The translations under genes and the position numbers were made by a program. The notes below the pieces were generated by a model. It ran no database searches and had not been told where the DNA came from. It saw only the letters and a list, made by a program, of their open reading frames with translations. This document shows, one piece after another, positions 8,302 to 59,722 of a DNA stretch of 64,000 nucleotides; the first letter of the stretch is position 1; every line of letters starts with the position of its first letter. This DNA is from a virus (taxonomy: Duplodnaviria; Caudoviricetes), in the IMG/VR virus record IMGVR_UViG_3300025066_000012, positions 49,520 to 113,519 of that record, one strand, 5' to 3'.

Positions 8302-8910
8302 TTAACCTTTCAATAGAAACAGAAGCTTTTCCTTATCTGCATCCGAAGCAGCCTCAAAGACTGCTTCAATATTTCCGAAGCCTTGATCATTCTTGACCTT
8401 ATAATCAATGATGAAGCTTAGATTCTTATAGAGAATATTGTGGATATACTTGCTGGTAGCAGCAGCATAAACAGCAGCTTCAGCAGCACAAGCCGCAGTA
8501 GCAGCTTCAGCGGCAGCATAATAAGCAGCAGCACAAGTAGCAGCTTCAGCGGCAGCATAATAAGCACAAGTAGCAGCTTCAGCAGAATAAGCAGCAGCTT
8601 CAGCAGCACAAACAGCAGCATAAGCAGCAGCACAAGTAGCAGCTTCAGCAGAATAAGCAGCAGCATAAGCAGCTTCAGCAGCACAAGCAGCAGCATAAAC
8701 AGCATCAGCAGCAGCATAAACAGCATCAGCAGCATCAGCATCAGCAGGATTCCTCAGCCATGCTTCAGCAGTTTCGATTGCTTTCAAAGGTCGTTTATCC
8801 TTCGGATACACCTTCTCAAAGAGAGGCAGAACTTCTCTTGCAAAGATGCAAGCAACCCAAGCGGACAGAGGCTTGTCGAGTCTTAAGTCTTTAACGGATA
8901 AGAGGCTCAT
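8302..8910 (-). CDS. Imm5-like domain protein with Ala-rich repeat tract
   Basis: WVACIFAREVLPLFEK.YP.DKRP.KAIETAEAW followed by A/Y/C/E repeats. Confidence 0.7.
   Translation of the reverse strand: MSLLSVKDLRLDKPLSAWVACIFAREVLPLFEKVYPKDKRPLKAIETAEAWLRNPADADAADAVYAAADAVYAAACAAEAAYAAAYSAEAATCAAAYAAVCAAEAAAYSAEAATCAYYAAAEAATCAAAYYAAAEAATAACAAEAAVYAAATSKYIHNILYKNLSFIIDYKVKNDQGFGNIEAVFEAASDADKEKLLFLLKG
8455..8746. repeat. GCT-rich imperfect tandem repeat (AEAATCA / AAYAA units)
   Basis: repeated gcagcttcagc / gcacaagtagc blocks. Confidence 0.9.
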
Positions 8911-9014
8911 TGTCTTCAACTATCAACAGATATCTAAATCTTATTTATAACTTTAAAAGTTCTCGTCGGCCTGCGGTGGTGGCAGCCGCCCGACGACTTG
9001 CCGAGCGGCTTCAA

Positions 9015-9283
9015 CTACAATTTAGGCGCGGGAACTGTTGCGTCAAGACTCGTTGCAGATTCCTTTTCACGAGTCTCGATTAAGCGGTCCAGATACCACC
9101 TTGCCTTCTTCAAATCTTCCAGAACATTGTCATGCTTTTTCCGGCCCTAGATATATACTTAACAGTATTTCCCAAATGGAATCCCAGGTCCCATGCTTCG
9201 ATAACTTTAATCGTTTCATAAACCGAAGAGTCTCCCTGGGCAGCGCCGCTCTGATAGTGATTCGGATGTTTTACATTGCTCAT
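9015..9283 (-). pseudogene. second DUF3310 gene with 1-nt frameshift
   Basis: MSNVKHPNHY...GNTVKYISRAGK / HDNVLEDLKKARWYLDR; 269 nt, one A short in the run at 9136-9140. Confidence 0.85.
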
Positions 9284-9294
9284 TTATTTCTCCA

Positions 9295-9967
9295 TTATTC
9301 CAACCTTCCCTTTAAAAGATCACTAAATTTAGTAACCTTGCCAGTCCTGTGATCTGTAACTTTATCTCTTTGAATCTGATAAGTTTTAATCTTATCTCCC
9401 CTCATTCCCGAGCCAACCTGAGAGGATCTAATCCTTGAGCGTTTTTTCCCAAGCGTATCAGATTCTATCTCATAAAGCTTTGCCCGAAGTAATCTTAAGG
9501 CGTTCTCTTTATTCAGGCGTTGAGAGCGCTCCTGCTCACATCGCACAGATATCTGAGTTGGGATATGCTTTAGCTGAACAGCAGAGTCAGTTGTATTCCT
9601 GTGCTGACCTCCCGCTCCAGAGCCACGACAGGTTTTCCATTCAAGATCTTTTTCTAAAATCTTTATGTCAGCCTGCTTAGGCTCCTCTAAAACTGCAACA
9701 GTTATTGTTGAAGTATGAATTCGCCCTCTTTTGTCAGTAGGGGATGCTCTCTGAAAACGATGACCCCCCGCTTCTCTGCCAAACATCTTTAAAGCATTCT
9801 TCCCTTTTACTAGGGCGATTATAATCCCTGGACGAGAATCTATTAGGCTTAAGCTAAAGAGAGTTCCGGCGACAGACCTTGGCGTAAATTCCAAATTGAT
9901 CTTTAACAAGAAGTTTGCTGTCCCTGCCGCCTTCGGCGGCTCTAATCTCTAATATAATAGAATTCAT
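9295..9967 (-). CDS. class I peptide chain release factor, 223 aa, expressed via +1 frameshift at CTT-TAG-C (9859-9853)
   Basis: SD AAGGAG + ATG 9967; frame 0 gives ILEIRAAEGG.DS.LL (PCRF start) and stops at codon 38; +1 frame gives EAGGHRFQR, SPT, GRIHTS, GSGAGGQH, R..KIKTY. Confidence 0.88.
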
Positions 9968-10049
9968 ATCTACTCTCCTTAGTTTGTTCTGGTTTAATAC
10001 CAGAAGCCATAATCATTTTACCTAGAATAATCTCCGTCAACAATCCATT

Positions 10050-32522: not shown

Positions 32523-34121
32523 TCAATCAGCTGGCGGGCTATAGATCGTAACTTCCGTTGTCAGCAGGATTCCGCCAGAAGATGCAGCGTTTTCTAAGGC
32601 AACTCTAACCACTTTTACTGGATCTATAATTCCTGCGCTTATCATATCTTCCTGTAAGTCTCCAACTAGCGCATCAAATCCCATCAAAACGTTGCCTGAG
32701 CTTATAATCTTTTCCATATGCAAGTGATATTCTATACCTGCGTTTTTTAGAATCTGCACAAATGGGGCCCTCATAGCTGAGGCAATCACATCACATCCAA
32801 CTATTTCTTCTGTAGTTAAATTTGAATTCTCTTTAAATTCCCTTAAGGCCGGCAAGCAATGTAACAATGCTGCGCCACCACCGGGAACTATACCTTCTTC
32901 GATAGCAGCTTTAACCGCATTGATAGCATCTTCAACTCTATCTTTTCTTTCTCTTACTTCCGCTTCCGAAACCCCTCCAACTTTCAATACTGCTATAGAG
33001 CCGGTTATTGCTGATAGCCTCTGCCTAAGCGCAGCAATTTCATAACCCTCTAGGTTTGGCTCTTCCATCCTCATTTGCATAGACTTAATCCTCCCTGCAA
33101 CATCATCAGGCGTTCCGGCTGCGTCTATGATAGTAGTATCATCTCTTGTGACAGAAACCCTCCTAGCCGTCCCCAGGTCGTCTAACGTAGCTTTATCAAG
33201 CGGGGAGCCTACCTCGTCTGTAAACAAAGTTGAATTACATACTGTCGCAATATCACCAAGTATATCACGCCTTATCTCACCAAACCCAGGAGCCCTAACC
33301 GCACAGGAAGATAGTGTTCCGCGAGCCCTGTTTAGAACCAGCGTCTGCAATGCCTCACCCTCGGTTGTCTGTGAGATAATCAATAGCGGCTTACCAGTTT
33401 CTGCAACCGCAGTAAGAATAGGCATCAATTCATAAGTTGATTTAATTCTTCCGTCATAAGTTAATATAAACGGATCTTTAAATTCAACAGTCATTCTGTC
33501 TGTATTCGTTGAGAAGATTGGATTTATATACCCCCTATCAAATGATAGGCCCTCAGAATAAATAACCTTTGTCTCTGTTCCCGCTGATTCCTCTACTGAA
33601 ATTAAGCCATGATCTCCAACAGAAGAGACTGCTCCGCCTATGATTCTTCCCAACTTTTCATCATTGTTCGCAGATATGATCGCAACACTATTTATTAAAT
33701 CTTCACTAGAAACACTTTGCGCAAGATCCTTAAGCTTTGCTGAGACAACCTCAACAGCTTTATCAATCCCTCGTTTAATTAAAACCGGATTGTGTCCAGC
33801 TGCGACCATCTTTGAGCCTTCGGTATAGATAGCTTGGGCCAAAACTGTTGCAGTTGTAGTTCCGTCACCAGCCAGAGAGTTAGTAGAGCTAGCTACGCTC
33901 TTTATTAGTTCTGCGCCCATATTCTGGATTCTATCTTTTAGAACGATAGCTCTAGCCACAGTTACTCCATCCTTAGTAATGAGCGGTGGACCAAAGTCTC
34001 TATCTATTGCTGCGTGTCGGCCCCTTGGACCTAGAGTTGCCTTAACTGCGTTTGCAAGGATATCAAGACCTTCTTGCAGGCCGAGTCTTGCCTCGGCATT
34101 AAACTTAACTTCTTTAGACAT
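32523..34121 (-). CDS. groL: chaperonin GroEL
   Basis: TLGPRGR, ITKDGVTVA, AGDGTTTATVLA, FDRGY, APGFG, EEGIVPGGG, GIIDP.KV; no GGM tail. Confidence 0.97.
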   Translation of the reverse strand: MSKEVKFNAEARLGLQEGLDILANAVKATLGPRGRHAAIDRDFGPPLITKDGVTVARAIVLKDRIQNMGAELIKSVASSTNSLAGDGTTTATVLAQAIYTEGSKMVAAGHNPVLIKRGIDKAVEVVSAKLKDLAQSVSSEDLINSVAIISANNDEKLGRIIGGAVSSVGDHGLISVEESAGTETKVIYSEGLSFDRGYINPIFSTNTDRMTVEFKDPFILTYDGRIKSTYELMPILTAVAETGKPLLIISQTTEGEALQTLVLNRARGTLSSCAVRAPGFGEIRRDILGDIATVCNSTLFTDEVGSPLDKATLDDLGTARRVSVTRDDTTIIDAAGTPDDVAGRIKSMQMRMEEPNLEGYEIAALRQRLSAITGSIAVLKVGGVSEAEVRERKDRVEDAINAVKAAIEEGIVPGGGAALLHCLPALREFKENSNLTTEEIVGCDVIASAMRAPFVQILKNAGIEYHLHMEKIISSGNVLMGFDALVGDLQEDMISAGIIDPVKVVRVALENAASSGGILLTTEVTIYSPPAD

Positions 34122-57736: not shown

Positions 57737-59179
57737 TTACAGAGTAATCTTCTCGTAACGCTCAGACATGATAGTCTTAAGCATAATCTTCTCGGGAGAG
57801 AAGTCGGAAGAGGAAAGAATGCTAGTCAGAATCGAAGGACTGAATCCAGACACAAGAGCCGTGCCAGCCTCATCAAAGCGAACCGGGACATTGCCACCAT
57901 GAGCATTGAGATTCCAAAAGACAATATTCGGAAGCTCATAGCCTGCGTCAACATACTTCTGTCGAATGGACTCCATAGCGGTCAGGTCAGCGTTCTGAGC
58001 ACACTGATTAAACTCCATATCAGAGATAATCAGAATAGAGTTAGGCATATCACATGCTTCAACCGAAGCTCGCTGTGCGTTAGTCAGAATCAGAGAGAAC
58101 ACAGCCTCAATGTCTGTGGACATTCCCCAATCTGCACGGCGAAGATTCTGCATCTTCTCTACAATGTTCTTTCCAGCAAGCTTCTGTAGCTGCGGAGTTG
58201 AAGAGAATGTAATGAAGCAATCCTTGAACGGACCATTGTTACGGTCTGCAATGTAAGCTCCAAGTCCTACAGATACATCCATCGGCGTAACCGAAGACTT
58301 GTCAGAGTAGCCACAAGTCATGCTTCCAGATACATCAATGACCGGGAGAATACGATGCGGATTATCAATCATCCAGTTAGGCATGGCATCCCACTGAGAC
58401 TGAATCATACGAATCTGGTTCTGGTCCGGTGTCAAAGACTGGTAAGCCTGAGAAGAAAGCTGGTGAGGATAGAGGACACCAGAGTTTACCTTGGCTTCTC
58501 CGCTTTCGAGAGCATCAAGGTACACACTCCAAGTTTCGTCAGAGTGACGAGCAAACGCCTTCTTATAGTTATTCATTGCAACAGACGGAACATGACCATA
58601 CTCAATGGAGTCCCATTCCTTTGCACACATCTGAGTCTCAACAACCTTTGTTCCCTTGACCAAAAGCTTTCGATAAGCCTTCGGAGAGAGTCCCATATGA
58701 TTGCGAATCATATTTGCATAACGAGACTTTGCAGACTTTTGACGCGGCATCCACTTTGAAGCTAGAGCATCGCCAGCATTGAGAGCCGAAGCAATCAGAT
58801 TCAGAACATCAGTCCGAACCGTTGTGTCAAGCAGACACAGAAGATCATCGTATCGACCGTAATGAGGAATCAAATGAAGATTGGAGCGCAGAGCCTCCGT
58901 ATGAACGACCGAAAGGTAGTTTGCGAGTACCCGGAAGATACGACGTTCCCCGGCTCCCTGACGGGCATCACGCGCCCAGAAAAGGGTCTTTAGAGCGTAC
59001 TCGGGATTCTCTTCAAACGCAGCAGAGAAAAGCTGAATAATATCAGAGTCAGAGTGCGAACGCATAGCGGCAATCTGAAAGAACAAATCGACCGAAGCCT
59101 TTGCGCTTGAAAGGTTTGTCACACAACCGTTTTCGGTTACGCCAGAGTTTTCGATAGAAGCAATAAGAGGGCTATACAT
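57737..59179 (-). CDS. DUF2828-type TROVE-like + vWA protein (Ro60-like architecture)
   Basis: TENG, DLFF, FWARD.R.G.GER, YGRYDDL, KWMPR, Y..VPS.AM, LYPHQL, DVSGSM, ISDMEF, VFWNL, VSGFSP. Confidence 0.88.
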   Translation of the reverse strand: MYSPLIASIENSGVTENGCVTNLSSAKASVDLFFQIAAMRSHSDSDIIQLFSAAFEENPEYALKTLFWARDARQGAGERRIFRVLANYLSVVHTEALRSNLHLIPHYGRYDDLLCLLDTTVRTDVLNLIASALNAGDALASKWMPRQKSAKSRYANMIRNHMGLSPKAYRKLLVKGTKVVETQMCAKEWDSIEYGHVPSVAMNNYKKAFARHSDETWSVYLDALESGEAKVNSGVLYPHQLSSQAYQSLTPDQNQIRMIQSQWDAMPNWMIDNPHRILPVIDVSGSMTCGYSDKSSVTPMDVSVGLGAYIADRNNGPFKDCFITFSSTPQLQKLAGKNIVEKMQNLRRADWGMSTDIEAVFSLILTNAQRASVEACDMPNSILIISDMEFNQCAQNADLTAMESIRQKYVDAGYELPNIVFWNLNAHGGNVPVRFDEAGTALVSGFSPSILTSILSSSDFSPEKIMLKTIMSERYEKITL

Positions 59180-59643: not shown

Positions 59644-59722
59644 TGGTCCGAGGGGTGGGATTTGAACCCACGTATCTTTCGCTTATAAGACGAATGCTTT
59701 TCCCAGACTTGGCCACCCTCGG
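59644..59722 (-). tRNA. tRNA-Ile(UAU)
   Basis: CCGAGGG/CCCTCGG-A-CCA acceptor, TTCGT-CT TAT AA-GCGAA, GTGGG TTCAAAT CCCAC; weak D stem. Confidence 0.8.

Follow-up and report, generated by a model that had tools for sequence, protein, structure and literature searches.

An RF1-type release factor gene on a large-phage fragment with a probable programmed +1 frameshift at an amber stop codon

RESULTS

The release factor locus and its setting

The window analyzed here, a stretch of 64,000 nucleotides, is part of the 113.5-kb IMG/VR virus record IMGVR_UViG_3300025066_000012, which is a fragment of a large phage, since its completeness is estimated by CheckV at 34%. Apart from the release factor gene described below, ORFs of the window match baseplate, DNA ligase, HNH endonuclease, GroEL-like, and TROVE-like families; the GroEL-type chaperonin gene is full-length (32523-34121, minus strand; phrog_5725, 7e-149). 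An Imm5-like protein with a long internal Ala/Tyr/Glu-rich repeat region (AAEAAYAAAYSAEAAT...) is encoded at 8302-8919 on the minus strand (Pfam PF21805, 1.6e-5). The window uses the standard genetic code, with TAG terminating 11 of its 86 predicted ORFs, and the alternative genetic codes tested on it improved coding density too little to indicate recoding. The whole 113.5-kb contig was found to carry one tRNA gene and no suppressor tRNA; the single gene, encoding tRNA-Ile with the anticodon TAT (59644-59722, minus strand), adjoins a DUF2828/DUF7788 gene (TROVE/Ro-like, phrog_850) at 57737-59179 on the same strand.

The release factor gene lies on the minus strand and is distributed over two reading frames. 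A Shine-Dalgarno (SD) sequence, AAGGAG (9975-9980), can be read 7 nt before the ATG (9967-9965) that initiates ORF1, and SD-like 4-mers precede 62% of the predicted genes in the window compared with 10% in the background. ORF1 comprises 37 sense codons in frame 0 (9857-9967; MNSIILEIRAAEGG...CRRNSL) encoding the N-terminal strand and helix of release factor domain 2 with the EIRAAEGG motif; it corresponds to positions 100-133 of the Pfam PCRF family, in agreement with the initial annotation, which had taken it for the start of that domain. It is terminated within the putative shift cassette CGG AAC TCT CTT TAG C (9853-9868), which has the same register as the family consensus CGGAGG-NNN-CTT-stop-C and consists of a degenerate SD, GGAAC (9867-9863), a 3-nt spacer, TCT, the slip codon CTT (9859-9857), the amber stop TAG (9856-9854), and a C at the +4 position (9853). 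The CUU-U slip codon in front of an amber stop that had been noted at the outset is this CTT TAG (9859-9854).

The remainder of the factor is found in the +1 frame, where the initial annotation had placed it. This continuation, ORF2, extends over 186 codons from AGC (Ser38) to the last sense codon (9298-9855), is closed by the TAA of the full-length factor (9295-9297), and encodes the rest of domain 2/4 and the GGQ-bearing domain 3; the +1-frame ORF (to 9295) matches PCRF positions 153-194 and the whole Pfam RF-1 domain (3e-32). Codons for the tripeptide "anticodon", Ser75-Pro76-Thr77 (SPT), are located at 9736-9744, aligned with PVT of Thermotoga maritima RF1, and the catalytic GGQ (Gly119-Gly120-Gln121), encoded at 9604-9612, falls in invariant alignment columns. 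A +1 step at the cassette yields a 223-aa fused product (P0001), which in a thirteen-way alignment with continuous homologues shows no gap across the junction (e.g., NSL-SLSLIDSRPG in P0001 and NSL-ELSVIEDRSG in P0072). Readthrough in frame 0 gives 40 codons without similarity to release factors, followed by TGA, as had been stated initially.

Directly upstream of the release factor, a short ORF (9942-10043, minus strand) has a terminal sequence, ...MASGIKPE..., similar to the C terminus (...LASGVKPE) of a 194-aa protein at the same position in a sister phage (L002 2396-2980); it may be the remnant of a lost or broken gene.

Type of the encoded factor

By its sequence, the encoded protein is an RF1-type class-I release factor without domain 1. 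It contains the PCRF and RF-1 domains with GGQ and scores highest against the NCBIfam model of prfA (227 bits), followed by prfB (165 bits) and PrfH (84 bits). The prfA match spans model positions 105-332 of 347, and all of these scores fall below the respective cut-offs (400 for prfA and 166.65 for the PrfH model TIGR03072) because domain 1 is missing. Among PDB structures, RF1 entries score 175-140 bits versus 119-102 bits for RF2 entries, the best match being T. maritima RF1 (1rq0; E value of 1e-50), ahead of all RF2 entries and PrfH; the strength of this match settles the fold. No gene for RtcB, the partner of PrfH, was detected on the 113.5-kb contig. ArfB, a protein of ~140 aa in which the GGQ domain is accompanied only by a basic C-terminal tail, was considered and rejected: only residues 99-133 match its model, and the codon-recognition domain is present.

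The residues flanking the tripeptide, Gln and Ile-His-Thr, are RF1-like, and the tripeptide itself departs from the PxT of RF1, being SPT here and PPT or PPN in most relatives. Under the tripeptide rule of Ito et al. 2000, Ser in first place combined with Thr in third might reportedly broaden reading to UGA besides UAG, which we treat as a lead only. According to evidence reviewed in PMC1586002, domain 1 is needed neither to recognize codons nor to release the peptide, and serves RF3-dependent recycling.

Conservation of the shift site

In each of 80 viral loci, we determined the positions of the N-terminal and GGQ motifs; 76 loci could be classified, of which 53 need a +1 shift (54 with a slightly wider motif test). 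The initial annotation had proposed to look for conservation of the CTT-stop context and of the frame change at this codon, and both are conserved: counting from the E of EIRAAEGG, the frame-0 stop is reached at exactly 93 nt in 54/54 frameshifted relatives, with CTT as the codon before it, and the recurrence of the shift at the exact codon, always after CTT, excludes chance. Most frameshifted relatives also carry GGAGG, GGGGG, or GGGAG 3 nt upstream of CTT. The nearest relative, a sister phage (L004/L005) recovered from two metagenomes, is 77% identical, groups with the window gene with a support of 99 on a quick IQ-TREE tree with SH-aLRT support, and retains TAT CTT TAG C amid diverged flanking sequence.

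When IMG/VR was scanned independently for a degenerate DNA pattern made up of the N-terminal motif, a fixed spacing, and CTTT, at least 85 release factor cases emerged, all with CTT-stop and with GGQ in the +1 frame. The stops among the 85 matches listed are TGA in 65 (76%), TAG in 17 (20%), and TAA in 3 (4%). Another 21 distinct matches listed have GGQ in neither frame; 13 of these 21, which lack a stop at the site, appear to have matched by chance. When contigs of cellular genomes were scanned, almost only ordinary cellular prfA was recovered, and the one match with the cassette (L084) probably represents a phage contig that was assigned to a MAG during binning. In protein searches, most homologues are annotated as ORF2-only proteins that cover ~83% of the fused query.

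The +4 base is C in the window (9853), in 10/10 amber loci of the first DNA set, and in 14/17 amber IMG/VR matches listed, and is mostly C among the IMG/VR gates listed. UAA accounts for 3.5% of the gates among the IMG/VR matches listed, whereas 22% of the ordinary genes in these loci end in it (P = 1.6e-6, with relatedness ignored), and its depletion at the gate, combined with the mostly-C +4 position, argues for selection of slow termination across the family. Three amber gates listed (L179, L253, and L280) have T at +4, a base found in 0/65 of the RF-confirmed opal gates listed; opal gates among the matches listed have C, G, and A at this position.

The stimulatory elements of the window copy are reduced. 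Where the consensus has an internal SD, the window reads CGGAAC-TCT, of which only GGA can pair, consistent with the weak SD-like element described initially, and the sister phage reads CGAAAT-TAT, so that the clade of the window, as judged from these sequences, has lost the stimulatory SD. A search for downstream RNA structure that could act as a stimulator or compensate for this loss found none (z = +1.2). Given the degenerate SD and the lack of downstream structure, the window copy may shift less efficiently than the consensus form.

Relatives without a net frame change were also seen. Ungated relatives make up only 10/76 loci, and 14 relatives have zero net frame change and 1-2 in-frame stops within the same short gene region: at 93 nt after the motif in L007, L008, and L031; at 111 and 135 nt in L063, L064, L066, L071, L073, and L078; and at 90-123 nt in L049, L067, and L081-L083. 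Examples are CTA TGA C or TAT TAG A at the shift-site codon, and TGA and TAG placed 24 nt apart. These 14 loci could represent readthrough gates, recoded phages, or paired shifts.

Identity of the gate stop

In the 120 homologues nearest to the window, out-of-frame dipeptides imply ~35 amber and ~41 opal forms (amber, ~44%), where Phe-Ser is read as TAG and Phe-Asp or Phe-Glu as TGA on the assumption that Ser is encoded by AGY, as it is in 10/10 amber loci of the first DNA set. The idea that the amber form is unique to the window was rejected on the basis of these ~44% and of the ~20% among the IMG/VR matches listed.

On the quick tree, at least 8 switches between UGA and UAG are needed to account for 9 amber rows, and these rows are no more clustered than shuffled labels. 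PPT, PPN, and SPT loops occur in both the amber and the opal classes. A column-by-column comparison of 42 amber with 80 opal sequences singled out the junction residue only (best other P value of 4e-4 over 680 tests), and we found no convincing link between stop class and either the tripeptide motif or the stop-codon use or GC content of neighboring genes. In continuous homologues the post-slip residue (Ser, Asp, Glu, or Asn) is variable; the protein therefore leaves the identity of the stop unconstrained and free to drift.

DISCUSSION

The arrangement of this locus leads us to propose, with considerable confidence, that the 223-aa factor lacking domain 1 is made only by programmed +1 ribosomal frameshifting. 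In prfB, the P-site tRNA-Leu on CUU re-pairs on UUU when a poorly recognized stop followed by C occupies the A site, and decoding resumes in the +1 frame. By analogy with this established mechanism, ribosomes starting at the ATG at 9967 would translate 37 codons and come to a point at which tRNA-Leu pairs with CUU in the P site while UAG-C fills the A site. There, slippage and termination would compete for two outcomes: (i) an RF1-type factor terminates and a 37-aa peptide is released, or (ii) the tRNA moves forward by one base to pair with UUU, and decoding resumes at AGC (Ser), giving the rest of the factor. Since only RF1-type factors compete at UAG, the yield of full-length product should be inversely related to RF1-type termination activity, rising when termination at UAG is slow and falling when this activity is high. 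The activity in question would be contributed by host RF1 and, if it reads UAG as its sequence predicts, by the phage factor itself.

Two explanations without programmed frameshifting deserve consideration. Under the first, an assembly or sequencing error, or the decay of a pseudogene, has placed an extra T in the TTT run and broken a continuous gene. The T3 homopolymer at the site would suit such an event, as would the adjoining DUF3310 gene (minus strand, 9283-9110 and 9113-9015), which the deletion of a single A from the A-run at 9136-9140 has truly split into products of 57 aa and ~32 aa. The two splits nevertheless differ in kind. DUF3310 is intact in the sister phage (L002 3692-3961), and its 90%-identity cluster contains two alleles, one truncated to 57 aa (6 contigs) and one intact at 92 aa (8 contigs), which mark its split as a genuine polymorphism due to an indel or as phase variation. 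(The same protein would result from a -1 slip on the A-run.) For the release factor, in contrast, the two 90%-identity clusters that contain the window gene and the sister gene (>30 contigs from JGI, NCBI, ENA, and Logan) hold ORF2-type forms only, with no continuous allele in either; the initial annotation had named a continuous ORF in close homologues among the findings that would speak against it, and had noted that other frameshifts of the window look like decay, a distinction that the DUF3310 alleles bear out. Moreover, the same junction recurs in the sister from two metagenomes, in every frameshifted relative, and in the 85 release factor matches listed from the pattern scan, and both reading frames are under purifying selection: between window and sister L004, dN is 0.06 and dS 0.43 for ORF1, and dN is 0.20 with saturated dS for ORF2. 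We thus consider error or decay extremely improbable, and the comparison of alleles supports a programmed, prfB-type +1 shift.

The second explanation is that ORF2 is translated alone from a TTG at 9909, or that the UAG is suppressed, with ORF1 being a separate small peptide. Gene callers do annotate ORF2 alone, and the +1 frame is open from 9909. However, no SD precedes 9909, and a product initiated there would lose the strand and helix of the EIRAAEGG region, which ORF1 encodes and which continuous homologues possess; the out-of-frame N termini of ORF2-type proteins are conserved only at cassette nucleotides. Suppression, for its part, would yield the frame-0 extension unlike any release factor, on a contig where TAG serves as a stop and a suppressor tRNA was searched for in vain. 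Translation without a frameshift is accordingly very improbable to us.

What the gate senses is a separate question. The initial annotation had suggested a feedback sensor that makes the factor only when UAG termination, i.e., RF1 activity, is limiting. The dependence on RF1-type activity follows from the established mechanism and leaves this reading plausible, and for the amber class self-feedback would be the simplest expectation. The idea that the stop is matched to the specificity of the factor itself fared less well: UGA is the usual gate among relatives that share the RF1-type recognition loop (65/85 matches listed), and this majority, together with the repeated flips and the lack of a co-varying residue, weakens it and makes strict autoregulation doubtful. 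Three readings would fit these observations: (i) the factors read beyond the two codons of RF1; (ii) the gate reports on host RF1/RF2; and (iii) specificity is set by features that our comparisons did not detect. The gene could be a natural RF1-type counterpart of prfB autoregulation, with the alternation of UAG and UGA reflecting either relaxed or omnipotent stop specificity (PPT/SPT loops) or the sensing of host release factor limitation and a topping up of termination capacity, although we hold this to be fairly unlikely in that specific form.

An alternative is that the gate reads the host and not the phage factor, either reporting whichever host factor is limiting (RF1 at UAG and RF2 at UGA) or simply setting a fixed low translation rate, which would amount to cross-regulation or attenuation without feedback from the phage factor. 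This would agree with the free alternation of UGA and UAG in genes that share the RF1-type recognition loop, with the switches on the tree unaccompanied by any co-varying residue, with a post-slip residue that allows stop identity to drift, and with the avoidance of UAA only, the stop read by both host factors. Against it, the RF1-type product of the amber class is predicted to read UAG, so some self-feedback would be hard to avoid if the product is active, and matched autoregulation is the known use of the cassette in bacterial prfB (PMC12421855). On balance, we regard a purely host-reading gate as somewhat unlikely.

Programmed +1 frameshifting at CUU-stop-C is a textbook case of translational autoregulation that, to our knowledge, has been described only for RF2, and our search of the literature found no description of frameshifting in phage release factor genes. 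The same device is encountered here in viruses, with another type of factor and at a nonhomologous position; its copies number in the hundreds and include natural UGA, UAG, and UAA variants. The phage cassettes suggest either that a recoding cassette of 15 nt evolved convergently or that it was transferred, and their variants offer a natural series for testing the effects of stop identity, +4 base, and SD on shift efficiency. They also raise the question of why large phages should carry a release factor that lacks domain 1. For annotation, the practical consequence is that gene callers systematically truncate these frameshifted phage genes.

The closest known system is bacterial prfB, in which the +1 frameshift depends on an SD, a 3-nt spacer, and CUU UGA C (surveyed in PMC12421855) and reaches ~28% in E. 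coli (PMC5373646). Like prfB, the phage gene encodes a class-I release factor and combines the slip codon CUU-U with a stop in the A site, a C at +4, and the remainder of the protein in the +1 frame, and most members of the phage family share GGAGG or GGGGG exactly 3 nt upstream. It differs in that (i) the factor is RF1-type and not RF2-type; (ii) the site lies at codon 37/38 in domain 2, whereas that of prfB is at codon 26 in domain 1, a domain absent here; (iii) the stop is UAG, found in 0 of 8,164 prfB motifs (PMC12421855), and varies between UGA, UAG, and rarely UAA across the family; and (iv) the window copy lacks the SD and is carried by a phage. The two sites are not homologous, the phage protein starting at prfA model position 105 and its shift site falling between PCRF positions 133 and 153, which confirms the different location pointed out in the initial annotation. 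Across 8,164 genomes, the prfB gate was TGA in 98.6% and TAG in none, a bias that has been taken as an argument for autoregulation (PMC12421855).

The best-scoring family, bacterial prfA, shares with the phage factor the GGQ motif, the Gln and Ile-His-Thr residues of the third-base pocket, and the signature GSGxRxDKIRTY...VTDHR; the phage factor differs from it in lacking domain 1 (its match begins at model position 105 of 347), in having SPT in place of PxT, and in scoring far below the equivalog cut-off. Unlike the phage gene, cellular prfA is not known to use frameshifting: a 2025 survey of more than 12,000 bacterial genomes reported no frameshifting in prfA and no UAG in prfB motifs, frameshifting has not been demonstrated for prfA (PMC12421855), and the RF1 family is described as being without it (PMC1586002). 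PrfH (RFH), which pairs with RtcB2 (PMC1586002), is likewise a class-I release factor paralogue without domain 1, but the phage sequence is much nearer to RF1 (227 versus 84 bits), its contig has no RtcB, and a frameshift gate is absent from PrfH. Among viruses, the closest parallel is the class-I release factor gene of Mimivirus and Megavirus, a viral termination factor likewise made through internal stops by recoding, in that case frameshifting and readthrough, which has been read as prfB-like autoregulation (PMC3521657). That factor is of the eRF1/aRF1 type, belongs to a eukaryotic virus, relies on other recoding signals, and has no sequence relation to the phage gene.
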